A stretch of DNA of 64,000 nt from a virus: IMG/VR virus record IMGVR_UViG_3300044739_000018, positions 1 through 64,000 of that record, one strand, 5' to 3'. How positions within the stretch are numbered: position 1 is the first letter of the stretch; every line of letters begins with the position of its first letter. Positions 12,506-56,618 of the stretch are shown here, piece by piece. The notes beneath the pieces are model-generated. The model ran no database searches, was not told where the DNA came from, and saw only the letters and a list, made by a program, of their open reading frames with translations. Position numbers and translations under genes: made by a program.

Positions 12506-13254
12506 TGGCTAACGAGAAGCGCAAGCGCCAAATTGCTGTCGGTGGTCTGATTGAGGACAACCCTCTGACCAGCGGTGCTACCACGCTCACGTCTGCGGGC
12601 TTGTCTGCTGTCATCGGAGGGGTTGCGTCGACGGAGCACCTTGCAGTCGTTCTGGATCCGGACGGCACGTATGGAGCGCCCGAGATTGCCTATGTGACGA
12701 CTCTGACGGACGGCGGAACCTCTGGCACCGTGGCGCGGGGCCAGGAGGGCACCACCGCCCGCGAGCATCTGCGAGATGTGCCCTGGATCCATGCAGCGAC
12801 CCTGCGGGACTACCTGAAGATGTGCAAGGCCGTCAGGGACGGCGGCGGCACTGTCACCATCACTTCGACTACGCGCACGCCTGTGGACTCCACCAACTTG
12901 CCCTTTGTGTACTTCGACTGTGAAGTCGGAGACATTGTGGAGTGCCAGTTCGCCTTCGGAGCCAACGTCACGGGAGGTGGTAACGGTTACGTGGACGTGG
13001 AAGTTGACCGACCCACGTCAGCCAACACCTACGTCGCCAATGCCAACGATGACGGTATCGCCGCATGGAGGAACGTGGCTGGTCCCGTCCATGCCGTGGG
13101 TGTGTTCACGATCACTGAACGCGGACGACACGGGTTTCGGCCTGTTGCATTCCGGTCGGGTGGAACCTCGGTGCAACTAGAGAACGCTGCTTCCGGCACT
13201 GCCGATACTCCCATCACCTTCATTGCTAAGAACCTTGGGCCGGAGAGTGCGTAA
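12505..13254 (+). CDS. Tail fiber-associated protein
   Basis: PEIAYVT...TVARGQEGTTAREH motif typical of phage tail-fiber N-terminal modules. Confidence 0.55.
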   Translation: MANEKRKRQIAVGGLIEDNPLTSGATTLTSAGLSAVIGGVASTEHLAVVLDPDGTYGAPEIAYVTTLTDGGTSGTVARGQEGTTAREHLRDVPWIHAATLRDYLKMCKAVRDGGGTVTITSTTRTPVDSTNLPFVYFDCEVGDIVECQFAFGANVTGGGNGYVDVEVDRPTSANTYVANANDDGIAAWRNVAGPVHAVGVFTITERGRHGFRPVAFRSGGTSVQLENAASGTADTPITFIAKNLGPESA

Positions 13255-14045
13255 TGGCGTCGATGCTCCAAGAGATGATGGCGGACTCTCCGATCCACCT
13301 GTGGAAGTTCGATGCCTTGTCAGGAACCATTCCTGACGAGATTGGCTCATTGGAACTCGACAGTGTGTCGGGCCTGACCTACAACCAGACGGGGCCGGGA
13401 CCATACAAGTCGGTGCTGTTCTCCAACGGCAAGGCGAAGACCACCGCCAATAACGTGTCGCCCGATCCTACTGACATGACAGTCGAAGTGTGGGCACTGA
13501 CCAACACAACCATGTCCACAGGTGTGGGACAGACCGTCTGGTCTTGCTTCCAGAACACCGGGAACTCGTACGGCGGGTTCATCATTGATGCCAACGGCCA
13601 GGCTGCCCTTGGAGTGTCTGGTTCCCCACGTTTCGTGATTGGCAAGCACCTCACCGGAGATCCGTGGGCGCAGGTGGCTATTGATCAGCTTCTGACCACC
13701 GGCGTGTGGCATCACATCGTGTTCACGTTCGAAAACTCTACCGGTACTTCGAAGGCGTACAGGAACGGCACTTTGGAGAACACCCAGGTCGGTACTACTG
13801 GCGGCTCTCGTGCCACAATCAAGGGGCCGGTGCGCTTCGGCGGCTTCAGTGACGATTACCCGCAGTATTGGGACGGGAAGATCGGCCCGGCCGCGGTCTA
13901 CAACACCGTCCTGTCACAGCCACGCATCCAGGCGCACTATGACGCCCTCAACAACTCCATCGTTCCGCTGAATGACCGGTACCTCTCCGGCAGCGCGGAC
14001 GGAGGCCCGCATCGCATGGTGCCCAGCGGAGGGTTCGGTAGCTAA
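13254..14045 (+). CDS. LamG/concanavalin A-like domain virion protein
   Basis: MADSPIHLWKFD, TVEVWA, WHHIVFTF, WDGKIGPAAVYN. Confidence 0.75.
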   Translation: MASMLQEMMADSPIHLWKFDALSGTIPDEIGSLELDSVSGLTYNQTGPGPYKSVLFSNGKAKTTANNVSPDPTDMTVEVWALTNTTMSTGVGQTVWSCFQNTGNSYGGFIIDANGQAALGVSGSPRFVIGKHLTGDPWAQVAIDQLLTTGVWHHIVFTFENSTGTSKAYRNGTLENTQVGTTGGSRATIKGPVRFGGFSDDYPQYWDGKIGPAAVYNTVLSQPRIQAHYDALNNSIVPLNDRYLSGSADGGPHRMVPSGGFGS

Positions 14046-15076
14046 TGCCCTACGGAACCGTCCAATACGCTGGCGCATACCAGCTCCGCACTACGGCTAC
14101 AGTTACACACACTGGGTCTGTAGTCATGGCGGGAACCGCCACCCTAACGGCAATCTCCTCCGAAGTAGTTTCGTTCTCTTACACCGGAGCGTCCACAACA
14201 TGGACAGTGCCTACGGGAGTTACAACTATTAGCGTCGATGCTTACGGCGCTGCTGGTGGACCCATCACTGCTGAGGTTTACACGCCGGGCTACGGCGGGC
14301 GTGTGAAGTGTGATCTCACGGTAACGCCCGGCGAGGTGCTGCAAATCAACGTTGGTGGACAAGGGGCTACTGGCACGATTGGAGGCTCCGGGGTTGCCGG
14401 TGGTTGGAACGGCGGAGGCGCAAGCGGCAACGGCGCGAGTGGTGGGGGTGGTGCTACTGACGTTCGTAGGGGAGCGTACGCCCTGGCTGACCGCCTGGTG
14501 GTTGGTCCTGCCGGTGGCGGTATCGGTGGTAACGGTAGTGGAACCAACGTCGGCCACGGTCACACTCCAACTGGGGCGAATGGCACGACTGCCGGGGCAC
14601 AGCCTGGTGGTGCTGGTGGTACTTCGAGTGCTGGTGGCGCGGGCGGCAATGGACCGGAGCAAGATGGTTCGCCGGGAACTCTTGGCACGGGTGGTGCTGG
14701 TGCTAATGGGTCTGGTCCTCGCCATGGCGGCGGTGGCGGTGCGGGGTACTACGGCGGCGGCGGTGGTGCTGGGTCCAGCACGCCGGGTCAGTCCGGTGGA
14801 GGCGGTGGCGGCGGCTCCGGACTGAGCACGGGAGTGAATGCAACCCTAACCAGTGGAGTTCGCACCACCGATGGCCTTTTGGTCATCTCCTACCTGCCAG
14901 TGACCAACCAGGTCACGATGGCCGGTATCAGCACCATGACTGTCATGTGGGCCGGACTGGTCACTGGCAGCGTGGCGATGAGCGGATCAGCAGCCATGAC
15001 CACATCGGGATCAGTTACTTCCGGCTTCGCGTTTGCTGCCCGCATGGGACCACTCCTGATTGGCAGGCGGTCTTAA
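14045..15076 (+). CDS. Glycine-rich domain tail appendage protein (copy 1)
   Basis: FSYTGASTTWTVPTGVTTISVDAYGAAGG...LTVTPGEVLQINVGGQG plus poly-Gly runs. Confidence 0.7.
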   Translation: MPYGTVQYAGAYQLRTTATVTHTGSVVMAGTATLTAISSEVVSFSYTGASTTWTVPTGVTTISVDAYGAAGGPITAEVYTPGYGGRVKCDLTVTPGEVLQINVGGQGATGTIGGSGVAGGWNGGGASGNGASGGGGATDVRRGAYALADRLVVGPAGGGIGGNGSGTNVGHGHTPTGANGTTAGAQPGGAGGTSSAGGAGGNGPEQDGSPGTLGTGGAGANGSGPRHGGGGGAGYYGGGGGAGSSTPGQSGGGGGGGSGLSTGVNATLTSGVRTTDGLLVISYLPVTNQVTMAGISTMTVMWAGLVTGSVAMSGSAAMTTSGSVTSGFAFAARMGPLLIGRRS

Positions 15077-15933
15077 TGGCAACGACAACTCTCAGCTATA
15101 CGGGTTCGGCTCAGACGTGGCAGGTGCCAGCGGGCGTAACCACTGTCACTGTTGACGTGAAGGGGGCGCAGGGCGGCAAAGCGGCCGGTGCTGCCGGAGA
15201 ATATGGTGGCAAGGGTGGTCGGGTCCAGTGCAACTTGACCGTTACCCCAGGCGAGACGCTCCAGATCAACGTTGGTGGACAGGGTGCTCAGGGCATCAAC
15301 TCGGGCAGTCCTGCTGCTGGCTGGAATGGCGGCGGCGTTGGATACCAAGCTGGTGGCTCAGGTGGCGGCGGAACGGACATTCGTAATGGCTCCTACGCTC
15401 TAGCAGATCGACTGGTCATCGCTGGCGGCGGGGGCGGTCAAGGTGGATACGGGTCAGGTGGAGCTGGCGGCGGCAGCGCGTCTGTTGACAACTCGACCTC
15501 TGGTATCGGCGGCACGCCATCTGGTGGAGCCGGAGCGGCGGCGCTCTCAGGCTGGGGTGGTGGTGGCGGTGGCACAAACTCTGCTGGCGGCGCTGGAAAT
15601 ACCAGCGACCCCTTCAGTGGTGACGGCTTCAGCGGCTCGCTTGGACAAGGTGGTGCCGGTGGAGGGCAGGGTGGGGGTAGCAACGGCGGCGGAGGCGGCG
15701 GAGGCGGTCGCTACGGAGGGGGCGGTGGAGCAGGCAACGCCAACGCTACCTACGGTTCGGGTGGTGGAGGTGGAGGCTCGGGCCTCTCAACGGGTGTTGC
15801 CGAGACGCTGACGAGCGGGTTCAAGACGGGCAACGGTGAGGTTGTCCTGACCTGGACGGCACCCGATCCCCTCAACAATCGTTACAGGGCAGATCACGTC
15901 GATGGTGGCCCCCATCGAATGGTGCTCGGCTAG
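15076..15933 (+). CDS. Glycine-rich domain tail appendage protein (copy 2); start ATG 15076
   Basis: LSYTGSAQTWQVPAGVTTVTVDVKGAQGG...LTVTPGETLQINVGGQG; paralog of 14045..15076. Confidence 0.7.
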   Translation: MATTTLSYTGSAQTWQVPAGVTTVTVDVKGAQGGKAAGAAGEYGGKGGRVQCNLTVTPGETLQINVGGQGAQGINSGSPAAGWNGGGVGYQAGGSGGGGTDIRNGSYALADRLVIAGGGGGQGGYGSGGAGGGSASVDNSTSGIGGTPSGGAGAAALSGWGGGGGGTNSAGGAGNTSDPFSGDGFSGSLGQGGAGGGQGGGSNGGGGGGGGRYGGGGGAGNANATYGSGGGGGGSGLSTGVAETLTSGFKTGNGEVVLTWTAPDPLNNRYRADHVDGGPHRMVLG

Positions 15934-15962
15934 TGCCGAAGGTATCTATGAGGTGATGCCTC

Positions 15963-16166
15963 ATGGCCCAGAGAGAGCAGAAGACCAAGACGGCGGCACG
16001 GTCAAAGAAGGCTGAGGCTGTCGAGGAAGACCCGCCCAAGTCTGAGCACCGTTCTGCCGAAGACCTCAAGGCAGAGATGGATGATCTGCTAGACAACATT
16101 GACGAGGTTCTTGAGGAAAATGCTGCCGATTTCGTGGCTGGCTATATCCAGAAGGGCGGTCAGTGA
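15963..16166 (+). CDS. pup: Prokaryotic ubiquitin-like protein Pup
   Basis: 67 aa; disordered N-terminus and C-terminal DDLLDNIDEVLEENAADFVAGYIQKGGQ, the Pup signature; SD GAGGTG. Confidence 0.95.
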   Translation: MAQREQKTKTAARSKKAEAVEEDPPKSEHRSAEDLKAEMDDLLDNIDEVLEENAADFVAGYIQKGGQ

Positions 16167-16300
16167 CCGAGGAGTGCCAGGACTGCCAGCGGCTTGAGAA
16201 AGAGCTTGCGGAGTGGAAGGAACTCGCCCAGCACTGGCGGCGCAAGTTCGGTGAGAGCGAGCGCGCCCGCATGACCAACAAGCAAAGGTCGGGCGGCTGA
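16163..16300 (+). CDS. 45-aa CxxC/coiled-coil peptide ending in RSGG (not in the ORF track)
   Basis: GTGA overlap with the pup stop; MTEECQDCQRLEKELAEWKELAQHWRRKFGESERARMTNKQRSGG. Confidence 0.6.
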   Translation: MTEECQDCQRLEKELAEWKELAQHWRRKFGESERARMTNKQRSGG

Positions 16301-16615: not shown

Positions 16616-16801
16616 ATGCCGCGCACCCTAACCCGGGCGGGCTGGACCGACGCTGATGGCGTAGCTCGTCTCGTCGTCTTGTGTGTGGCCTGCGCTGCCG
16701 AGCTAAAGGCAAAGCGCAAGTGCTTCGTGCGACCGTTTGGTGCGGGCACGGGTGAGTGTGAACTGTGTAACTACGAACTGAGGCGGGAGGTCGTTGAATG
16801 A
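16616..16801 (+). CDS. Small Cys-rich hypothetical protein
   Basis: CVAC and CELC motifs; overlaps the next gene's start. Confidence 0.5.
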   Translation: MPRTLTRAGWTDADGVARLVVLCVACAAELKAKRKCFVRPFGAGTGECELCNYELRREVVE

Positions 16802-17565
16802 AGTGGTGGCAGAGGTGGTGGCGTAGTTGGTTCCCGCAGGCCCATCGGCATGAGCCAGCAGAACTCAAGGATGGCACAGTCGTACAAGACCGGCGCCTTG
16901 ACCGGATTCCCCAGTTCGACGCACGAAGCCTGAACTTCCCGGTTCGGACCCTGATCCCCCAGGCGTATCCTCCGCGCTCCTACACGTGGTCGGTGCCAGT
17001 CAACCTGAATCAAGGTGCCGAAGGAGCTTGTGTTGGCTTCGGCTTTGCCCACGAACTTGCAGCGAGACCGGCGTCGGTGCCGGGCATGACCAATGACTTT
17101 GCCAGGCAGAAGATCTACTGGCGGGCACAGCAACTCGATCCCTGGGCCGGAGGTGCTTACCCAAACGCCAACCCCTTCTATGAGGGAACGTCCGTTCTGG
17201 CGGGGGCACAGGTCTGCACCAAGGAACTCAAGCTCTATGGCGCATACCACTGGGCCTTCAGCCTGGATGACGTGATCATGGCCCTCGGCTACAAGGGTCC
17301 CGTGGTCCTCGGTGTCAACTGGTACGAGGGCATGTGGGACACCGATGCCCTGGGCTTCATACGAGTCCGTGGTGCCCTCGTGGGCGGGCATTGCATTTTG
17401 GCCCATGCCGTGGACCTGCGGAACAAGCGGGTCAGTCTGTTCAATTCCTGGGGCAAGAACTGGGGCATAGGTGGGAAAGCCTGGATCAGCTTTGCCGACC
17501 TCGACAGGCTGCTAAAGGAGCAGGGAGAGGCTTGTGTGCCCACACTGAGGGTAGTTAAGGCTTAG
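16798..17565 (+). CDS. Papain-like cysteine peptidase (C1 family)
   Basis: Catalytic motifs NQGAEGACVGF (Q, C), GGHCIL (H), NSWG (N). Confidence 0.85.
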   Translation: MKWWQRWWRSWFPQAHRHEPAELKDGTVVQDRRLDRIPQFDARSLNFPVRTLIPQAYPPRSYTWSVPVNLNQGAEGACVGFGFAHELAARPASVPGMTNDFARQKIYWRAQQLDPWAGGAYPNANPFYEGTSVLAGAQVCTKELKLYGAYHWAFSLDDVIMALGYKGPVVLGVNWYEGMWDTDALGFIRVRGALVGGHCILAHAVDLRNKRVSLFNSWGKNWGIGGKAWISFADLDRLLKEQGEACVPTLRVVKA

Positions 17566-17622
17566 TCGATTAACACCCTCATTCTGTCGATCCTCTAGGT
17601 AGAACCAACCCTGGAGGTCGCT

Positions 17623-17751
17623 GTGAGTGAACAAGAAAACCCTCCGGTCGATGAAGACGAACTCGATGGCTGTGACCTGGAGTTTGACGAGGCCGTAACG
17701 GACGAAGAAATCCGGGAGCTTGTGGTTCCCGAGGATCAGGAGAAGGTCTAA
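17623..17751 (+). CDS. 42-aa highly acidic peptide coupled to the endolysin (not in the ORF track)
   Basis: GGAGG SD, GTG start, TAATG overlap with the endolysin; 18 of 42 residues are D/E. Confidence 0.6.
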   Translation: MSEQENPPVDEDELDGCDLEFDEAVTDEEIRELVVPEDQEKV

Positions 17752-18638
17752 TGGGGCGCGCCCTCTGGCTCCCGGACCTGCTCCGGCAGTACGGCGTGGA
17801 GGTAATCGAGGTTGCGGGTTGGCGCGAGCGTGGCTCTGCCACCTTCAATCCGCAAGTCATTGTGGCCCACCACACAGCCAACCCCAACCTGGCTGACATG
17901 CCGAGCCTCAACCTCCTCATCAACGGACGTTCGGGGCTTCCTGGACCACTGTGCCAGGTGGGTCTGTCGCGCTCCGGCAAGGCGTACATCGTTGCCTCTG
18001 GACGGGCCAACCATGCGGGCACCGGGAGTTGGCGCGGTGTCTCCGGCAACACGAATGCCCTGGGCATCGAGGCCGAGAACAACGGCACCGGTGAGCCGTG
18101 GCCCGCCGCGCAACTTGAGGCGTACTTCCGGGTTGCTGGCGCCATGTGCGACGGCACCACGCCCATGCGGGGAGCCGAATGGGTTTGCGGCCATAAGGAG
18201 TGGGCACCGAGCCGCAAGATCGACCCCAAGAACATCGACATGAACTGGTTCCGGGACCAGGTGGCACAGCGCCGGGCAGCGAAGCACGCTGGCACCCTGG
18301 GTGGCACAGTCAACCCGACCCCGCCTCCGCCCCCGCCTCCGCCACCGCCGCCTGCTCACTCCCACCCGACGCCGCTGGTCAAGAACGCCCCGGTGAATGG
18401 TGTCTGGCGCGGGCAGGTGTACCACCCCGAAGCTGGCAAGTGGTTCGTCCAGGCCAGCACGGCATGGTGGGAGATTCGTGACATTCAGCAGCATCTCAAG
18501 AACCAGGGTCATCAGATCGCCGTCGATGGATTCGGCGGTCCCACCACCAATCACCACATCGTCACGTACCAGCGTGCCCGGGGCCTGTCGGCTGATGGCG
18601 TTGTTGGGCCTGCGACGTGGGCACGGTTGCACGGCTGA
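17751..18638 (+). CDS. Endolysin: N-acetylmuramoyl-L-alanine amidase + poly-Pro linker + peptidoglycan-binding domain
   Basis: VAHHTA, RANHAG, GIEAEN, GHKEWAPSRKIDP; C-terminal VDGFGGPTT...YQRARGLSADGVVGPATW. Confidence 0.9.
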   Translation: MGRALWLPDLLRQYGVEVIEVAGWRERGSATFNPQVIVAHHTANPNLADMPSLNLLINGRSGLPGPLCQVGLSRSGKAYIVASGRANHAGTGSWRGVSGNTNALGIEAENNGTGEPWPAAQLEAYFRVAGAMCDGTTPMRGAEWVCGHKEWAPSRKIDPKNIDMNWFRDQVAQRRAAKHAGTLGGTVNPTPPPPPPPPPPPAHSHPTPLVKNAPVNGVWRGQVYHPEAGKWFVQASTAWWEIRDIQQHLKNQGHQIAVDGFGGPTTNHHIVTYQRARGLSADGVVGPATWARLHG

Positions 18639-18641
18639 GCC

Positions 18642-19067
18642 ATGACGTGGATCCTGGCAGCACTGCCGCTACCGGCAGGCGTATTCCTCTACCGCATCTT
18701 CGGAGCGGCTACGGACCCCACCGGGGGATGGCTGACAGCACTCAGCGGACTCGGTGTAGCTGGCATCCTCTGCGGATACCTGGCTTTCGATAATACACGT
18801 TTGCGCAAGGAGCTGAAGGACTGCACGGCAACAGTGCTCAAGAAGGACGAGGAGCACGCCAAATTGCTGGTTGACACGCTGGCACGGTACGAACGTCTGT
18901 TGCCGATTGAGACAGAGAGTCAGCGCATCCATACTGAGTCCATCAAGGTGCTGGAACGTAGCATTACCATGATGCACCAGCTTGCAGGTAGGCCAGCCCT
19001 GGACCCCGGCATCCTATCTAAATTGGACGGAGAGACTATCCGTAAATTGATCGGGGGGACGACATGA
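18642..19067 (+). CDS. Membrane protein, holin-like
   Basis: Two N-terminal hydrophobic helices then a coiled coil; follows the endolysin. Confidence 0.5.
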   Translation: MTWILAALPLPAGVFLYRIFGAATDPTGGWLTALSGLGVAGILCGYLAFDNTRLRKELKDCTATVLKKDEEHAKLLVDTLARYERLLPIETESQRIHTESIKVLERSITMMHQLAGRPALDPGILSKLDGETIRKLIGGTT

Positions 19068-30737: not shown

Positions 30738-30975
30738 CTGGAAGCTCCGAGGCCGTTGCGTCGGAGTGCAGCCACCGGATGCCGACCTGTTCTTTTCGGA
30801 GGACTACAGGGACCAGAGACGGGCCAAGCGCGAGTACTGCGCCTGGTGCCCTGTCACCAAGGAGTGCCTGGACTACGCCCTAAGAACTGAAACGTGGGTT
30901 GGGGTGTGGGGCGGCATGACCGAGGACGAGCGAGAGAAGTACGACCGGCAGCGCAGACGGAGGGGACTGGCCTGA
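30724..30975 (+). CDS. whiB: WhiB-family Fe-S transcription factor
   Basis: W..RGRC, DLFF, CAWCPVTKECLDYAL, GVWGGMTEDER. Confidence 0.9.
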   Translation: MTTSDWKLRGRCVGVQPPDADLFFSEDYRDQRRAKREYCAWCPVTKECLDYALRTETWVGVWGGMTEDEREKYDRQRRRRGLA

Positions 30976-38305: not shown

Positions 38306-39192
38306 TAGGACGACGGGCCGGTTGCGCCGAGCAGGTGCTCCGTGGCCTGGACCCACTCGTTCAGAGCGGTGACCGCAGCCAGGTTGCCCGGGATGCCCTT
38401 GGGAAAGAGCAGCCCGATGAGGGTGTCCAACGTGTCGTCATCGAGGTGGATGCCCTCGACCACGAGCGCGGCACGGACGGGGGCAGAAGCCTCGGTGCGG
38501 TCCTTCTGGATCGCACGCTCCCGCTGAGCACGCCGCTCGGCCATGACAGCCCGCGTGGTGCCCTTGGGACGGCCACGAGGACGCTTGGTCGCCTTGACCT
38601 TCGGCTCGGCCTCGACCGGGGCAGTCTCAGCCGCCAGCTTCTGGGCCAGCTTGCCGTCCGGCTTGCGGATCACGCACCACTTCTCATGCGGCGCACGAGC
38701 AGGCTCGCTCATGGTCTTGTTGCAGTTGCGGCACTTCACCATGTTGTGGCTGCGCTGGTGAACGCGCACCGACTTGAGGTTGTCGAACTCCTTGCCACAC
38801 CCATCCTCGGGGCACTTGAACGTGACCGATTGGACGGGAGCAGTGGACTTCGCCTCAGCGGGCGGGTCCAGCACCGCAACATTGCTGCCAGTATCAACGA
38901 CGCCCAGAGGCTCCGCGATCTTGGCTTCGGATGCAGACATCACCTTCTCCTTTGTAGGACCTCGCATGAAGTCCTGTACGGGTACTCCGAGCACGGCCGC
39001 AGCCTTTCGGAGTGCCTTCCAAGGCGTGGGAGTGTTTCTCCCAACCGCCGTCAGTTGCACTCTGTGATCGCGGTATGCGAGCACAGTATGACCGCCGTTG
39101 CCGCCTATCTCCTCAAAACCCCACGACTTCAAGAGTGCGAGGGCATTTCGATTGGAGATAGGAGCGGCAGCGGCCGAGCGTCTACGCGCCAC
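38305..39192 (-). CDS. Multidomain nucleic-acid-binding protein: HicA-like N-domain, C2H2 and C2HC Zn fingers, AT-hook
   Basis: LKSWGFEEIGGNGGHTVL; FKCPEDGCGKEFDNLKSVRVHQRSH; CRNC..HEKWC; KRPRGRPK. Confidence 0.6.
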   Translation of the reverse strand: MARRRSAAAAPISNRNALALLKSWGFEEIGGNGGHTVLAYRDHRVQLTAVGRNTPTPWKALRKAAAVLGVPVQDFMRGPTKEKVMSASEAKIAEPLGVVDTGSNVAVLDPPAEAKSTAPVQSVTFKCPEDGCGKEFDNLKSVRVHQRSHNMVKCRNCNKTMSEPARAPHEKWCVIRKPDGKLAQKLAAETAPVEAEPKVKATKRPRGRPKGTTRAVMAERRAQRERAIQKDRTEASAPVRAALVVEGIHLDDDTLDTLIGLLFPKGIPGNLAAVTALNEWVQATEHLLGATGPSS

Positions 39193-40090
39193 CCTTCTTG
39201 CTCCTTTCCTTCAGGAACTGGTGTCCCTTGCGGGTGATGACCCGACCGCGGTCAGTCAGTTCCACGTAGCTGCTGTTGAGGAGGAGTCGTTCCAGATCAA
39301 CGACAACACTCTCGTTCAGCCGCAGCAGGTTGCTCAGGGTCTTGACGCCTGCCTTTCCACCGAGCCGGTTAAGCGTCTCGATGTAACGAACATGCTGCAC
39401 CGAAAGACCGCTCTCGTCAACCCGGCACAGTTCGAATACCTCTTGGGCAGTCGGTGTGCGCTTGTTCACAGCAGTGAGGTCCCTTGCGGTAAGCACGAGC
39501 TGGCGTGCGTTACGCGGAGTGCCTGCCGCAGCCCGACCGAACTGGATGCAAGTTTCCTCGTCCAATTCGACGCCAGCCTTGACAGCCATGCCCCTGACGA
39601 TGCTCCCCATGTCCTCGTCCGAATAGTCGTCGAACTCGGGACGGATGAGAAAGCGGTCGAACAAGGGACGAATGAGGGACTGCCGTTCCGTGGTGGCTCC
39701 CACGATCATGAGCAGTCCCGCGTGGATGCGTCGGCCACTGGAGTCCTGTATGTAGTTGAACTCCAGCAGCGGAAGCAGTTCCTCCTGTTGCTTCTTGGAG
39801 GCACGATGGATCTCGTCCAGCAGCAGCACACCATCGAACTGCCGGACGATGTTCGTCAGGGTGGCAGTGTTGATCGGCATGGTGAAGGACTCGAAGTCAG
39901 CAAACATTCCGTCGCCAATGATACGGGCGAGGCTTGTCTTTCCAAATCCAGCAGGCCCGTGTAGTAGGACGGGATCGAGAGCCGTGCCAAGCTCTACGGC
40001 GGCTGCCATGCGCACCTGTAGCTCGGCCTTCAGCGGTTCTTGCCCGATGAAGTCGTCCCACGTGTCAGGGCGAAGGGTATCTTCGCTCAT
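39182..40090 (-). CDS. ruvB: Holliday junction branch-migration ATPase RuvB-like
   Basis: LRPDTWDDFIGQE, GPAGFGKTSLA, LLDEIHR, VGATT, PLFDRF, GTPRNA, GVKTLS, TDRGRVIT. Confidence 0.85.
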   Translation of the reverse strand: MSEDTLRPDTWDDFIGQEPLKAELQVRMAAAVELGTALDPVLLHGPAGFGKTSLARIIGDGMFADFESFTMPINTATLTNIVRQFDGVLLLDEIHRASKKQQEELLPLLEFNYIQDSSGRRIHAGLLMIVGATTERQSLIRPLFDRFLIRPEFDDYSDEDMGSIVRGMAVKAGVELDEETCIQFGRAAAGTPRNARQLVLTARDLTAVNKRTPTAQEVFELCRVDESGLSVQHVRYIETLNRLGGKAGVKTLSNLLRLNESVVVDLERLLLNSSYVELTDRGRVITRKGHQFLKERSKKGGA

Positions 40091-44937: not shown

Positions 44938-45308
44938 TAGAAATCACCTCCGCCGCCACCACCGGAGTCGAAGCTGCCTCCGCCCGAGTCGTATGAGGAC
45001 CCCGAGTCGTAGCTGCTCCCACCACTGTCGTAAGACGAGCCGCCCCCGTCGTAACCGGACGAGCCGCTGTCGCCGCTGGAGGACTCGGAGCTGGTCTCGG
45101 CCGGGGCACACTCGGTGCTGGCCTCAGAGGCCGTCTCCGTGGCCTCAGGGGCACAATCAGCGTCCCGAGGCTCCTGGTCGGTCCTGTTGGAGTTGTCGAT
45201 GTAGAGCGGGTTCACGTACCCCGGGTGGAGCATGGTGTTGGTGGTCGTCTGCTGCACGAAGGGCCTACTCGCGGGCCGGTTACGCCGACGCCGAAACCAG
45301 TTTCTCAT
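44937..45308 (-). CDS. Small protein with a low-complexity S/G/D/Y tail (SSYDSGG repeats ending GGGGGGDF)
   Basis: SD AGGAGG; start ATG 45308; tandem SSYDSG repeats. Confidence 0.6.
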   Translation of the reverse strand: MRNWFRRRRNRPASRPFVQQTTTNTMLHPGYVNPLYIDNSNRTDQEPRDADCAPEATETASEASTECAPAETSSESSSGDSGSSGYDGGGSSYDSGGSSYDSGSSYDSGGGSFDSGGGGGGDF

Positions 45309-46605
45309 TGCCTTCCTCCTTGAAGAATGAACGTTGAAGTACTCGTGTCTCGTGGGCTGTCGGTCCATAGGATGTCAGGACCACGGGCCTGCTCAGGTGA
45401 TGCTCGATCATGTCAAGGTACGCCGACTTCGACACGTTCGTCAGGACCGGCAGGAAGTCCTTCATCAGCAGCGTGGTGTCACGCCCGCCGAGGTAGTAGT
45501 CACCCGGCACGACGCCACTCGGAGCGTCGTAGCTGGTGCAGATCGGCATGCCTTCGTCGGGCACGCGGTCCATGTGGGTGACAGCGAGGCCGTCAACGTC
45601 GCTGGCTGTGATGGCGTACTGCAACACGGGTAGGTCCAGGTGGCCGTTGCGCCATGCTCCCTGCCAAACGCCCGCCCCGTTGTGCAGCTCGGGAATGTCT
45701 CGCGTCATGTGGAAGTCCTCGGTCACCATCGGACCCGGGCCATGCCTCGTGGTGTAGGAGCGGATCACACCAAGGACGGTGACGTTGCGCCGCGTTCCGG
45801 TACCACTCAGCAACTCCAGGGCGTTGTGTCGTGTGGTCTTGGACCACGTGGTGTAGGGGTGGAAGCCGAACTGTTCATCCAGCAGCACGCCCTGTGCCCC
45901 CTCGAACACGATGTTCTCGTAGTTGCGAAGCGGATTGCCTGCCTCGATCTGAACGACGTTGCCGAAGTCAGCGTAGGCGTCCAGCCATTCCTTCATCTTC
46001 GGGTAGAGAATGTTCTCCATGGCCTGGCCCCACATGTCCTTGTCCACCGTGCGGGGCACTTCGAACTCGCCCACCGCATCCTTGGCGTACCGGAGGAATC
46101 GTTCCAGCATGACCTGAGAAAGCACTCGGTCAGTCAGGTGTCCGACGCGCAGGACTGATTCCCACCCGGAATGCGACTGGTGGATGCGTCCTTCTCCGAC
46201 ACCCTCACCCGTGGACCCATGCCGGTCAATCCCTCGGCTCAGTTCCCGCAGTCGATTGAGCGACTTGTGGGCGGGCGTGAGGACCATGGCTCGCGTGTCG
46301 ACGTGCAGCATGGAGAACGGGTCCTTCACGCCTACCGAACGCAGGTGCTCGGCTTCCTTGAAGGCGTTGAGGGGGTTCACCATCATGAACTTCGACAGGT
46401 AGGTCGAGGACCCGGCAAGTGTGCCCGCACCGAACTGCGAGAAGGTGTGGTGCTTGCCATCCCACGTCACCACGTTGTGAGCGGCTTGTGGCCCGCCGCA
46501 ATAGCGGACCACAAGCGCGCCTCTCTGCTGACGACAGAGGAAGTCAACAACCTTCCCCTTGCCAGCGTCACCAAAGCCAAGGTCAACAACGACCGTTGCC
46601 TTCAT
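45280..46605 (-). CDS. Adenylosuccinate synthetase-like (PurA-like) protein with a divergent substrate loop
   Basis: LGFGDAGKG, GGPQAAHNV, HGSTGEGVG, FEGAQGVLLD..FGFHPYTT, YTTRHGPGP, THMD, SYGP. Confidence 0.85.
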   Translation of the reverse strand: MKATVVVDLGFGDAGKGKVVDFLCRQQRGALVVRYCGGPQAAHNVVTWDGKHHTFSQFGAGTLAGSSTYLSKFMMVNPLNAFKEAEHLRSVGVKDPFSMLHVDTRAMVLTPAHKSLNRLRELSRGIDRHGSTGEGVGEGRIHQSHSGWESVLRVGHLTDRVLSQVMLERFLRYAKDAVGEFEVPRTVDKDMWGQAMENILYPKMKEWLDAYADFGNVVQIEAGNPLRNYENIVFEGAQGVLLDEQFGFHPYTTWSKTTRHNALELLSGTGTRRNVTVLGVIRSYTTRHGPGPMVTEDFHMTRDIPELHNGAGVWQGAWRNGHLDLPVLQYAITASDVDGLAVTHMDRVPDEGMPICTSYDAPSGVVPGDYYLGGRDTTLLMKDFLPVLTNVSKSAYLDMIEHHLSRPVVLTSYGPTAHETRVLQRSFFKEEGNEKLVSASA

Positions 46606-47540
46606 CGGGTCAGAGCAGCCTCGACGGCCTTGATGGTCACGTCCTCGGTCTCGTGCTCACGCAGGTGCTCCAGTCCCTCGGAAAGCTCGATGGCCTCCTC
46701 GGCAAGCCCCACGGTCACAGCGATGACCTCGGCCACGCTCTCACCGCGGTCGTCCAGCAGGATGACGTTCTGCCCGAGCAGACCCTGCCATGCCTTGATG
46801 ATGGCGTCCTGGCTGCCGCTGTCGGTCGCAGGGATGAGGACGTAGACCTCGTACTTCTCCTGCAACTCGGCAAGGATGTCGGTGGTCGGGATGTTGTCGG
46901 TGATCTCGTCACCGATGACACGCCGGACCTCGCGAGCCTTGACCTGCGGGTAGGGAGCCTCGTCACCGATGATGAAGGCGTAGCCCTTGTGCTGACGCTT
47001 CTCGAAGCACTCGATGTAGGTCTTGCGGGCGAGGTAGTACATGCCCAGCTCGTAGGACTCGTAGCCCCAGCCGCCGCCGTTGCCCTCGATGAAGATGTTC
47101 TTCAGGTGCTCGTCCATGCGGTTGTCCGCCTCGAACTGCGCCATCTGGAGCGGCACGCGGTCAGACGTGGCGTCACCGACAGCCCCGAACATGATCTGCG
47201 GGTCCTCGACGTAGCCCTTCATCTGCACCAGCCCCAGCAGGGCGGGCAGCTTCTTCAACAGCGTCTCCGGGATCTCGCCCATGCTGCCGGTCACGTCGAA
47301 CAGCACGGCCACAGCCACGCTCTTGGGATGCTCCGGCAGGTCCATGGACTCGCGGATGTTGTCGCCAGCGTGAACGCCGTTGTTGTTCACGCTCTTGGGA
47401 TCGAGCGTCTCGTGCGCCTTCCACTCTGTCATGCCACGGCTGCGAGTCGTGTCGGTGTACTCGAAGCCGCTCTTGCCGGAACGCAACGTCGCACCAGTGG
47501 TGCTGGCGTAAACGTCCGTTGACCAGTTTCCTCCGCCCAT
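46602..47540 (-). CDS. von Willebrand factor A domain protein
   Basis: MIDAS-like FDVTGSM, GAVGDA, EGNGGG..ESYEL, IIGDE; start ATG 47540 with SD AGGAG. Confidence 0.8.
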   Translation of the reverse strand: MGGGNWSTDVYASTTGATLRSGKSGFEYTDTTRSRGMTEWKAHETLDPKSVNNNGVHAGDNIRESMDLPEHPKSVAVAVLFDVTGSMGEIPETLLKKLPALLGLVQMKGYVEDPQIMFGAVGDATSDRVPLQMAQFEADNRMDEHLKNIFIEGNGGGWGYESYELGMYYLARKTYIECFEKRQHKGYAFIIGDEAPYPQVKAREVRRVIGDEITDNIPTTDILAELQEKYEVYVLIPATDSGSQDAIIKAWQGLLGQNVILLDDRGESVAEVIAVTVGLAEEAIELSEGLEHLREHETEDVTIKAVEAALTR

Positions 47541-47815
47541 CAGCTTTCTCCTTGGTTGTGTTCGAAATTTCGCCCCACCGGGGGTTGAGAGTCTGAGTGT
47601 TGACTCTCGTTGATGAGGGTCCGTTGCTGCCGAAGAAGCAGCCAGAAGTACAGCCACCCAAACGGGACCATGAATAGGCCCATCACGAAGGCGTCAGCCC
47701 AGCCGATGTCCGCGGCCCACCCGCTAAAGGCGATGTTCACCAAGCCGGTGAGTGTGCAGGCACCGATGCTGCCAAGCAGTCCGTGAAGGACTGGTCGTTC
47801 GTGGAGCAAGCTCAT
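47540..47815 (-). CDS. Small two-TM membrane protein between the kinase-like and VWA genes
   Basis: Hydrophobic; overlap-coupled on both sides. Confidence 0.55.
   Translation of the reverse strand: MSLLHERPVLHGLLGSIGACTLTGLVNIAFSGWAADIGWADAFVMGLFMVPFGWLYFWLLLRQQRTLINESQHSDSQPPVGRNFEHNQGES
47563..47603. repeat. 41-bp dispersed repeat, copy 3
   Basis: CGAAATTTCGCCCCACCGGGGGTTGAGAGTCTGAGTGTTGA. Confidence 0.8.
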
Positions 47816-53284: not shown

Positions 53285-53563
53285 TCATTTCAGCGGCGGA
53301 TCAGGCGGATACGCGATCTGGAAGATCTCGCTCAAAAGGATCCTCGCCACTCGGGTGAGTTCCTCCTGCTCGGCGTCTACATCAACGCCTGTTTTCGCAA
53401 GCTCGTCCAGATCACGCTTCGCATCCTCCAGCTTCTGGTGAATGCTGATGCCGTGCTTGTTCCTGATCTGCTTGTTGACCTGGCCTGCGTTGAAACGGCG
53501 AAGCAAGTCATCCAGGTCCAGGCCCGCCTGCTCGACGCGAGCGGCGATCTCGGAGACGCTCAT
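53285..53563 (-). CDS. Stand-alone homolog of the MoxR C-terminal helical domain, third gene of the MoxR-VWA operon
   Basis: NKQIRNKHGISIHQKLEDAKRDLD...VARILLSEIFQI; ATGA overlap with the VWA stop. Confidence 0.75.
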   Translation of the reverse strand: MSVSEIAARVEQAGLDLDDLLRRFNAGQVNKQIRNKHGISIHQKLEDAKRDLDELAKTGVDVDAEQEELTRVARILLSEIFQIAYPPDPPLK

Positions 53564-55176
53564 GCGCCACCGATTCCGCCGAAGATATCCCGGATATCCT
53601 CGCCGCCCTTCAAGTCCTTGATGGTGAGCACCCGCTTGTCGCAGATGGTTGCCAGAGGCTCGTCGGAGTAGCCGCCGCCGATCATGATGCCCCACACCGT
53701 GAAGCCCATGCGCTCCTGCTCCTTCTTGAACTCCGTCATCCACTGGTCGTTGACGCCGCAGGCACCGTCAGTGGCGAACACAATGTCGCCCTTGACGAAG
53801 CCGTTCTCGTCGAACTCTGCCCGCAGGTGGTCCAGCGAGCGGGACAGCGGCGTCATGAAGTCGGTGCCTCCCATGAAGGAGAACTCCGCCATGTCGATGA
53901 TCTTCTGCGTGTTGTAATCCTCCGGCTTGGAGAAGTCGAACTCCGCGATCTGATGCGTCGACCCGAAGGTGATGGCACGGAACGACCGCTTCTGAGCACG
54001 AGCCAGGTTGAGCAGGCAGAGGCCCACGGCCTTCGCCCACATTTCCGGCTCACCGCTCATGGACCCTGACGAGTCGTCGCAGTAGATGATGCCGCCCTTG
54101 CCGACCTTTTCCTCACCGCGCATCTCGTACTGGAGCAGGTTGCCCTCGATGAACTCCCGGTAGAAGTCCAGCTTCATGAGCGGGTTGCGCAGCTTCGAGA
54201 ACTGGACGGGCAGGACGCGAGCAAGGTCGTTGCCCTTGCCAATGTCGAACACTTCGTCCCTCGCGTGGTTGACCTTCCGACGCTGCTCGGTGAACATGAG
54301 CCGCTTCATCGGGCCGAAAAGCTCCGCGATCTTCTTCAACCGCGGGTTGTTGAGCTTGGCTGCCAGTTCCATGCGCTCCTTGGCGGGCATGCGCTGGAGT
54401 GTTCCCGGCTCCAGGCCCCACGCGTCGCCCTGCGCAGCCATTTCCTGCGCTTCCTTGACGGCGGCACCGAGAGCCTTCTTCATGGTCTGACGGACGGCAG
54501 GCGTCGCGTTCTTCATCGCCTGCTGGAAGTCCTTCGCGTTCTGCATGGCCTGGGCCTTCAACGCCTCCATCTGCTTGTTCAGCAGGGCGCGCTGCTTGTT
54601 CCAGTCCTGTGCCTTCTTCGCGTCCTCCGGGTCGTCCAGATCGAGGTCGTCGATCATTTCGTCCAAGGACCGAAGCTGCTCCTGCTGGTCGTGCAAGTCC
54701 TGGAGCTGCTTCTGCAACTCCTTGGCCTTCTCCTGCTCAGTCTTGAGCCGGTCGTGCAGGGTTTCGAGGTCGGGCCGCATCGCCATGGTGCCCATGGCCG
54801 CGGCAACCTCGTCGCCCACCGTGCCGAGGGAGCGAAGCTCGTCCCATTCCTTCAATTCCATGGCCTCGGAAGTGATGGTGTGGTCGATGACGTACTGCGG
54901 CTGCATGTCGCCCACGTCCTCGTGCTTCGGCTCGACCTTGACCAGTGACCAGTACGTGTCTGACCACAGGGCGTTGCCGGTGTCCACGGTGTCGCAGAAG
55001 CGATCCGCCTCGTTGGCGTACTCCTGCATCTGATCGCGGAGCCGTTCCTCATCCTCCACGTCGTACTTGTCGTGCTGGATCGAGTGCTTCGACAGCTTGC
55101 TCGGGTCGGGTGCGTTACCCGACTTCAAGAACTCGTCGAGGAAGCCCTTCTTCTTGCGCTTGCGCCAGTCTGCCAT
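53560..55176 (-). CDS. ViaA-like VWA domain protein with long coiled coil
   Basis: GNDLARVLP, DSSGSM MIDAS, GGTDF..PL, DIVFATDG. Confidence 0.85.
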   Translation of the reverse strand: MADWRKRKKKGFLDEFLKSGNAPDPSKLSKHSIQHDKYDVEDEERLRDQMQEYANEADRFCDTVDTGNALWSDTYWSLVKVEPKHEDVGDMQPQYVIDHTITSEAMELKEWDELRSLGTVGDEVAAAMGTMAMRPDLETLHDRLKTEQEKAKELQKQLQDLHDQQEQLRSLDEMIDDLDLDDPEDAKKAQDWNKQRALLNKQMEALKAQAMQNAKDFQQAMKNATPAVRQTMKKALGAAVKEAQEMAAQGDAWGLEPGTLQRMPAKERMELAAKLNNPRLKKIAELFGPMKRLMFTEQRRKVNHARDEVFDIGKGNDLARVLPVQFSKLRNPLMKLDFYREFIEGNLLQYEMRGEEKVGKGGIIYCDDSSGSMSGEPEMWAKAVGLCLLNLARAQKRSFRAITFGSTHQIAEFDFSKPEDYNTQKIIDMAEFSFMGGTDFMTPLSRSLDHLRAEFDENGFVKGDIVFATDGACGVNDQWMTEFKKEQERMGFTVWGIMIGGGYSDEPLATICDKRVLTIKDLKGGEDIRDIFGGIGGA

Positions 55177-55222
55177 TCAGACCATCCTTCCTATGCGCTT
55201 GGTGTTCGGTTCGGTTGGGGCA

Positions 55223-55270
55223 TCGGAGACGGTGCGCCCATCGGTGCATGGATAAACGCACCGTCTCCGA
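55223..55270. repeat. Perfect 14-bp inverted repeat (stem-loop) between the moxR-like and VWA genes
   Basis: TCGGAGACGGTGCG ... CGCACCGTCTCCGA with an inner CCAT/ATGG stem. Confidence 0.75.
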
Positions 55271-55285
55271 AGGTCTTGCAGGTTA

Positions 55286-56491
55286 CTACTGGACCTGCGA
55301 GGCGTCGATGCCGAAGATCTCCTTCAGCAGCGTGCGGGTGACGCCCAGCAGACGGGTGTTCAGCTCCGACATGGTGTCGGACTTGCGACCCGTCTTGACG
55401 GCCCGCTTCTCCAGTCCGTCCAGGTCGGCCTTCGCCCGCTCCAGCTTCCCGTGAAGCTCGATGCCCTTCTTGTTCTTGATCTGCTTGTTGTCCGAGTTCT
55501 TGATGACCTCGTCCAGATCGACAGCGAGCTTCTCGACCGTCTCCAGCAGATCCATGGCCTCCTTGTCCAGCGGGTTCGCCAGCTCCAGGACGGCCTTCTC
55601 GACGATGGCCTGCTCGTCGGGACGGGTCCAGAGGACGTGCCGCAGGAGACGCATGTCGTCGATATCCGCGACGGGCCGCTGGCTCATCCAGGCCGTGGCC
55701 TTGATGATCTTCAAGCACTCCGCGAAGCGACGGTCGGTCGGCTCGATGCCCTCCTTGCGCAAGTTGTTGCGCAGGGTGTTCATCGCGTCGAGCACGTCGT
55801 CGTTGACGTTGACCGCCTGGGACTCGACCTGAGCCTGGACGATCTCGTCCCACGTCACGATGGCCTGGGGCGCACCGGCGACCTGGAGCTTCAACATCTG
55901 GAGGAAGTTGCCCGCCTCCTGGATGGGACGCACGATGTGACGGAAGTGGACCCGGTCGTACATCGCTTCGAGTTCCTCACCCTGCGGCAGCTCGTTGCTG
56001 GCGCAGAACAGGGTCGAGAGCGGCACGTTGATCGGCACGTCGTTGTAGAAGATCCGCTCGTTCATGATGGTCAGGAGCGAGTTGAGGATCGACGAGTTGG
56101 CCTTGAAGATCTCGTCCACGAAGGCCAGCTTCGCCGTGGGCAGCATGCCCTTGACGTTGCGCCGGTACTCGTCGTTCTCCAGGGCCGTGAGGCTCGGGGG
56201 ACCGAACAGTTCCTCGGGGGTCGAGAAGCGGGTGACCAGACGCTCGAAGTACTCGTCCGGGCCGATCCCGCCGATGTGCGCCTTCATCGTGCGCACGAGC
56301 CGCGACTTCGCCGTTCCGGGCGAGCCGAGCTGGAAGTGGTGCACGCCGCCGATGACGGCGATGGTGCCCGTCATCGTCTCCTTCGACCGCTCGACCAACT
56401 CGCTGTTCAGCGTGTCGATCAGCAGTTCGAACTTGGCCTGGAGCGGCGCAGGGGCCGCGGCAGGAGCGGGCGTGGTGGTGGTGTCGCTCAA
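55286..56491 (-). CDS. MoxR/RavA-type AAA+ ATPase
   Basis: GSPGTAKS, FSTPEELFGP, FVDEIFKANSSILNSLL, ASNELP, YDR, DRR; TTG start 56491 with GGAGG. Confidence 0.9.
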   Translation of the reverse strand: MSDTTTTPAPAAAPAPLQAKFELLIDTLNSELVERSKETMTGTIAVIGGVHHFQLGSPGTAKSRLVRTMKAHIGGIGPDEYFERLVTRFSTPEELFGPPSLTALENDEYRRNVKGMLPTAKLAFVDEIFKANSSILNSLLTIMNERIFYNDVPINVPLSTLFCASNELPQGEELEAMYDRVHFRHIVRPIQEAGNFLQMLKLQVAGAPQAIVTWDEIVQAQVESQAVNVNDDVLDAMNTLRNNLRKEGIEPTDRRFAECLKIIKATAWMSQRPVADIDDMRLLRHVLWTRPDEQAIVEKAVLELANPLDKEAMDLLETVEKLAVDLDEVIKNSDNKQIKNKKGIELHGKLERAKADLDGLEKRAVKTGRKSDTMSELNTRLLGVTRTLLKEIFGIDASQVQ

Positions 56492-56537
56492 TTTTCCTCC
56501 ATGGGTGTTGGTTTGGTTGGGTGGTTGGACTGCTTGG

Positions 56538-56566
56538 ACCCTACGGGTCTGTGCAGGTTGAGTCAA
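56538..56566 (-). promoter_or_regulatory. SigA-type promoter of the moxR-like operon (TTGACT-N17-TAGGGT)
   Basis: Near-consensus -35 and -10 in the intergenic gap. Confidence 0.65.
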
Positions 56567-56588
56567 GCATTTCGTGAGGAGAAAGCCG

Positions 56589-56618
56589 ATTTCCACAGGC
56601 CGCGGCAGGTTATCCACA
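56589..56618 (+). promoter_or_regulatory. Two DnaA-box-like sites (ATTTCCACA 56589, TTATCCACA 56610)
   Basis: One perfect TTATCCACA and one single-mismatch box, 21 bp apart, upstream of the moxR promoter. Confidence 0.5.

Follow-up and report, generated by a model that had tools for sequence, protein, structure and literature searches.

Pupylation, the bacterial counterpart of ubiquitination, is a drug target in Mycobacterium tuberculosis. Several viruses are known to bring components of host pathways with them: eukaryotic viruses encode ubiquitin, baculovirus v-ubi being an example, and phages carry genes for high-turnover host parts, such as psbA of cyanophages. Ubiquitin-like modifiers also take part in phage-host conflict on the bacterial side, where the Bil system tags phage tails by Ubl conjugation as a means of defence.

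Cellular Pup is recognised by its enzymes through two helices, helix 2 docking together with helix 1 in the groove of Dop/PafA (PMC8599861). In the literature we found no description of a phage-encoded Pup. The nearest account is the hypothesis that actinophage and mycobacteriophage proteins avoid lysines and in this way escape pupylation (PMC13696103). Here we describe a phage Pup, and what is new is its synteny within a clade of phages, the figures for selection acting on it, a coupled partner ORF and the contrast with cellular Pups in helix 2.

Results

A single pup gene in a complete phage genome

The window, by which we mean the whole stretch of DNA analysed, covers the first 64 kb of an IMG/VR record of 163,481 bp that has direct terminal repeats and is 100% complete according to CheckV. 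Its features are collected in Table 1. The original prediction of a 67-aa Pup is confirmed by profile matches to Pfam PF05639 (E 2.8e-18, 67 bits against a cut-off of 27) and to the NCBIfam equivalog domain TIGR03687 (59.5 bits against 41.45), as well as by matches to M. tuberculosis Pup chains of solved structure (E about 2e-10). The translated 67 codons end in DDLLDNIDEVLEENAADFVAGYIQKGGQ. Of the last 28 residues, 22 are identical to M. tuberculosis Pup in the printed alignment, in agreement with the original prediction. The length fits the 60-70 aa or so of the Pup family, and QKGGQ stands directly before the stop codon, giving the GGQ/GGE end by which the family is recognised. Hydrophobic residues of helices 1 and 2 (L42, L43, I46, L50, F57, V58, Y61) are invariant between phage and cellular Pups, and so are the N-terminal MAxRExK, the ARC-binding helix region and QKGGQ. 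Judged by its sequence, the ORF is an intact Pup.

Table 1. Positions of features in the window
Feature	Position	Strand	Remarks
Three tail-fibre-like genes	13254-15933	+	one Laminin_G_3, two glycine-rich; upstream of pup
First glycine-rich fibre-like gene	14045-15076	+	343 aa
Second glycine-rich fibre-like gene	14947-15933	+	328 aa
Shine-Dalgarno-like GAGGTGA	15950-15956	+	6 nt before pup ATG; read from sequence
pup	15963-16166	+	67-aa prokaryotic ubiquitin-like protein, GGQ end; ATG start
pup helix-2 codons (NAADFVAG)	16119-16142	+	A55, A59 instead of cellular E, K/R
Partner ORF	16163-16300	+	45 aa; GTG start overlaps pup stop (GTGA); N-terminal CxxC
Lysis cassette	16798-19067	+	phrog_16701 peptidase, Amidase_2 + PG_binding_1 endolysin, two-TM holin-like ORF
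WhiB-family gene	30739-30936	+	70.6 bits
RuvB-like AAA+ gene	39182-40090	-	RuvB_N, lid and RuvB_C domains
Adenylosuccinate-synthetase homologue	45280-46605	-	441 aa; phrog_1211 E 2.8e-79; PF00709 E 4e-62
phrog_2971 gene	46602-47657	-	adjoins the preceding gene
MoxR-type AAA+ gene with adjoining phrog_24053 gene	53560-56617	-	bpMoxR, E 6e-43, found by Pfam; phrog_24053 protein of 538 aa

The gene lies where it had been placed, between tail appendage and lysis genes: the last fibre-like ORF stops 30 nt before the pup ATG, and small ORFs separate pup from the peptidase, endolysin and holin-like genes. A scan for promoters and terminators around pup gave signals no better than those of shuffled sequence. 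The two glycine-rich fibre-like proteins encoded directly 5' of pup are very poor in lysine, with one lysine in the first and four in the second, and contain stretches of 255 and 203 residues with no lysine at all, figures that carry no control for composition. Over the whole phage, lysine makes up 3.5% of residues and K/(K+R) is 0.32, as computed from a crude ORF set; these values say little without a GC-matched control.

The early observation that pafA, dop, mpa/arc and prcAB are missing from the window now holds for all 163,481 bp. Searching the rest of the genome for pafA and dop, which had been suggested as a check, gave no match to the Pup_ligase family (PafA/Dop); the 20S proteasome subunit families likewise had no match anywhere in the genome, and ARC/Mpa was not found in it. 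The AAA+ genes seen are RuvB-like, the sole AAA match of that search, and MoxR-like. The linkage pup-dop-pafA-arc/mpa-prcBA of Pup-proteasome loci is thus absent from the phage, whose genome contains one Pup match in total. Because the phage lacks every pupylation and proteasome enzyme, any activity of its Pup depends on Dop, PafA and ARC of the host, in agreement with the reliance on host enzymes originally proposed.

A separate observation concerns the adenylosuccinate-synthetase homologue and the phrog_2971 gene next to it. Its family, phrog_1211, is the PurZ-type enzyme found where phage DNA has 2-aminoadenine instead of adenine, and the Pup-carrying phage may have a Z-type genome.

Related phages share the locus and maintain pup

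The closest database proteins to the phage Pup (82%, 79% and 75% identity) are encoded on metagenomic contigs, all three with fibre-like genes before pup, small ORFs after it and then, where the contig reaches so far, a peptidase-sized ORF. Two further members, L016 and the more distant L017 (Pup 63% identical), were found via a neighbouring gene and a list of homologues. In all, five further metagenomic relatives carry pup. Genomic context matches in four; the fifth, L017, has the fibre-like upstream ORF and the partner ORF in common with the window.

Compared with two orthologues, pup has a dN/dS of 0.07-0.14 with synonymous sites saturated. The N-terminal half gives 0.13-0.30 and the C-terminal half about 0.03. 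Evidently, phage pup is selectively maintained under strong purifying selection.

Soon after pup, relatives encode a small membrane protein (L002, 10405-10758; also the JGI contig of P0004) with a precomputed match to PF04120 (Iron_permease). Since L017 carries a phosphoribosyltransferase in its place, the junction between pup and the lysis genes is a variable slot for accessory genes.

A coupled partner ORF

The start codon of the partner ORF overlaps the pup stop codon, and the same overlap is found in all five clade members with readable DNA, out of six (L002, L003, L016 and L017 among them). The product is 45-52 aa long, the 52-aa form being that of L017, and its invariant residues include the CxxC and an LxxxLxEWKxL...WRRxxGE core. 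AlphaFold2 models it as a single long helix over residues 6-42 (mean pLDDT 75). It matches no Pfam or PHROG family, a profile search against the PDB yielded chance matches only, and in libraries of 5.8 billion and 1.8 billion proteins the only match outside the clade was one spurious TPR-like repeat protein. Prediction of a complex of Pup with the partner scored 0.02, a value that bears on binding in neither direction. The small helical protein probably serves the Pup module as an accessory peculiar to the clade.

Lone Pups in other uncultured phages

Scanning IMG/VR with the single phage Pup protein gave no matches; an alignment-based scan combined with the DNA pattern ENA..FV..Y.QKGG[QE]-stop was needed, and it identified 27 contigs with a lone Pup. 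Viral Pups, the window clade included, form 16 sequence clusters. In the DNA examined around the lone viral Pups, Dop, PafA, PrcA/B and the neighbouring ATPase have no homologue. Hallmark phage genes accompany pup on L004, L005, L008, L099, L103, L107, L112, L116 and L122, and of these contigs L004, L005-L007 and L008 have no detectable proteins in common with the window phage. In such unrelated phages pup sits beside primase/helicase genes, beside ribonucleotide reductase (RNR) and portal genes, or just upstream of terminase (the L008/L117 lineage), i.e. in modules of replication, nucleotide metabolism and packaging. In a quick tree the window clade stands as a Pup group by itself (SH-aLRT 92).

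Small ORFs overlapping pup are seen in these phages as well. Several other viral Pup lineages have a small ORF after pup with a 4-nt overlap; in L112 and L119 it is a 46-aa four-cysteine, zinc-ribbon-like ORF (CPFC...CLAC) that overlaps the pup stop and is unrelated to the partner of the window clade. The L008/L117 lineage has, overlapping the pup start, an ORF of 117 aa with a zinc-ribbon-like CDRCG...FCGHH motif (L008, 207-560, + strand).

PHROGs contains no Pup family, and a tblastn search of cultured phages (INPHARED) with two viral Pups gave no match up to E 10. This absence from cultured phages is provisional because the low-complexity filter may mask Pup.

Cellular relatives and the host

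Of 511 confirmed matches in a genome collection, the best 80 include the nearest cellular Pups, with up to 69% identity. Nearly all of these 80 come from Acidimicrobiia MAGs, those of Microthrixaceae ranking first; the search pattern itself favours Acidimicrobiia, so that this similarity hints at the host without assigning it. An even draw of 401 Actinomycetota genomes, 14 of them unpublished and used for no other result, likewise gave no cellular Pup with more than 69% identity to the phage Pup. In all five Acidimicrobiia MAGs tested, dop, pup, prcB, prcA and pafA adjoin one another. In addition, the phage carries a WhiB-family gene. WhiB proteins are typical of actinobacteria and their phages; the gene points to an actinobacterial host. 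The two indications of the host are thus the WhiB gene and the resemblance to cellular Pups, which stays at or below 69%. A cellular donor cannot be named because most forks are unresolved in the quick tree of 105 Pups, built on 65 columns.

Helix 2 of part of the viral Pups differs from that of cellular ones

As cellular controls we took 159 Pups, 80 of the Acidimicrobiia type and 79 from an even phylum-wide sample. At the counterpart of M. tuberculosis E52, 159/159 of them have E, and at that of R56, 158/159 have K or R; this charged pair is an empirical regularity of the 159 cellular Pups, and not a published defining criterion. The window Pup lacks the pair, having A55 and A59 at these positions, a difference that, like the partner ORF, had escaped the original prediction. 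Within its clade the first position varies between A and E, and the second between A, S and R. A non-basic residue (A, D or N) occupies the R56 position in 8 of the 16 viral clusters (Fisher p 6e-9), and E is absent from the E52 position in 4 of the 16 (Fisher p 5e-5). The two altered positions stand as i and i+4, and F, V and Y, which face the groove, are invariant. By contrast with these differences, GGQ and GGE ends occur in the ratio 9:7 in viral clusters and 96:63 in cellular Pups.

The varied replacements suggest that viral Pups have been freed of a constraint acting on cellular Pups. The texts of the structural papers do not spell out contacts of E52 and R56 with Dop/PafA, which appear in figures only. 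Loss of the two charged residues probably alters the handling of the viral tag by Dop/PafA. The function affected might be one, such as reversible recycling, that a parasite of a dying cell would not need.

Discussion

We favour the view that the phage encodes a working Pup, a supply of modifier to be processed by host enzymes, and put its probability at roughly one half. Use of the host enzymes and a benefit to the phage are what we infer. The phage would express pup together with its late structural and lysis genes; host Dop would deamidate the GGQ end to GGE, host PafA would ligate the product to lysines, and host ARC/Mpa with the 20S proteasome would read the tag. In this way the phage would contribute only the small, scarce consumable of the pathway and would keep pupylation going, or raise it, while host gene expression collapses. 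The outcome would be degradation of host proteins with recycling of their amino acids, or removal of particular host factors.

A working modifier is favoured because the regions that cells need for docking on Dop/PafA, for ligation, for binding ARC and for threading are all retained under selection (dN/dS as above). The lack of these enzymes in the phage, its WhiB gene and the complete loci of the Acidimicrobiia MAGs also speak for it. The ratio of GGQ to GGE ends mirrors that of cellular Pups, which is what host-like processing of viral Pups would give. Published work fits a role in supply: free Pup is rarely detected in M. tuberculosis lysates unless overproduced (PMC5358908), and amino-acid recycling under starvation has been proposed for the Pup-proteasome system (review PMC8223512). 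Two points speak against it. A55 and A59 replace near-invariant charged residues, so that the change may be a defect in handling by Dop/PafA and not an adjustment of it, and the conserved, coupled partner ORF is not explained by supply alone.

The main rival, which we regard as a possible but clearly less probable explanation, is that abundant phage Pup jams the host system by occupying the coiled coils of ARC/Mpa, Dop or PafA, with the result that pupylated phage proteins would escape degradation or the regulated pupylation of the host would collapse. It would account for the loss of the basic helix-2 residue in 8/16 viral clusters and of the acidic one in 4/16 (1/159 and 0/159 in cellular Pups), and the ARC-binding region needed for such blocking is intact. 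Unprocessed Pup-GGQ binds Mpa and yet escapes degradation by the Mpa-proteasome (PMC3769308). The published lysine-avoidance hypothesis for mycobacteriophage proteins (PMC13696103) and the lysine-poor products of the two fibre genes 5' of pup point the same way, but low lysine is expected of glycine-rich fibres from composition alone. A pure blocker, moreover, would not need the N-terminal threading segment and the ligatable GGQ/GGE end, both conserved under selection, and many viral Pups have a fully canonical helix 2.

A little more tentative still is the idea that viral Pups are specialised effectors and not mere copies, having lost the charged helix-2 pair repeatedly, with the effect that conjugates would be hard for Dop/PafA to remove or that free Pup would block Dop/ARC, the helical partner assisting in the window clade. 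If this were true, phages would rewire or disable the sole ubiquitin-like degradation pathway of bacteria.

Pup and its partner might also act jointly, the partner binding Pup or ARC/PafA and directing or protecting the tag, so that pupylation would be put to a phage-specific use. Overlap and partner persist in all five readable clade members, down to 63% Pup identity, and the partner, predicted as one long amphipathic helix, is confined to the clade, bar the one spurious match, among 1.8 billion representatives; folding onto coiled coils is an established behaviour of Pup (review PMC8223512). We nevertheless think such joint action improbable, as other viral Pup lineages do without the partner, their overlapping downstream ORFs being unrelated, and four-base overlaps are frequent in packed phage genomes.

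Much less probable is a virion-linked role, in which Pup would modify or protect tail or virion proteins. The original prediction read this from gene position, and in the window clade pup does follow directly after tail-fibre-like genes, but the reading was not borne out: lone Pups elsewhere adjoin primase/helicase or RNR and portal genes, or precede terminase. Accessory genes are, besides, common at the tail-to-lysis junction of phages. The tail-gene neighbourhood says little on function because lone pup sits in other modules in unrelated phages.

Finally, a misassembled host fragment, the possibility that the original prediction named as fatal to it, or a recent functionless capture is extremely improbable and was rejected because the same pup recurs in five further independent assemblies (four with matching context), its stop codon is overlapped by the start of a phage ORF, dN/dS is low with saturated dS, and cellular Pups came no closer than 69% identity, whether in the top 80 of the 511 matches or in the 401 Actinomycetota genomes.

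The locus is of wider interest: a virus that carries the tag only makes the link between phages and pupylation directly testable. The natural helix-2 variants single out two residues for whose strict conservation in cells we found no explanation in the literature, and their role could reveal how Dop and PafA distinguish the states of Pup.

Comparison with known systems

With cellular Pup (M. tuberculosis Rv2111c, PDB 3M91, 3M9D and 7PX9; Acidimicrobiia) the phage protein shares family, length, the disordered N-terminus with MAxRExK, the ARC-binding and Dop/PafA-binding helices and the QKGGQ end. It differs in being encoded by a virus whose genome is devoid of Dop, PafA, ARC and 20S, in lacking the E and K/R of helix 2, and in its coupling to a clade-specific 45-aa ORF. 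The lone Pups of other uncultured phages are likewise orphan Pup-GGQ/GGE proteins; their contigs are genuinely of phage origin, and the DNA examined there lacks a Pup ligase. However, they belong to unrelated phages, sit in other modules and have no homologous partner ORF.

The Bil system resembles the phage locus in that a ubiquitin-like modifier takes part in phage-host conflict and in the link to tail proteins. There, however, the host encodes both the modifier and E1/E2, whereas Pup is here encoded by the phage with no conjugation enzymes alongside. Baculovirus v-ubi and cyanophage psbA have no sequence or structural relation to phage Pup and concern other hosts and other chemistry. The analogy is one of logic only: in each case the virus brings just the modifier or consumable and uses the machinery of its host.
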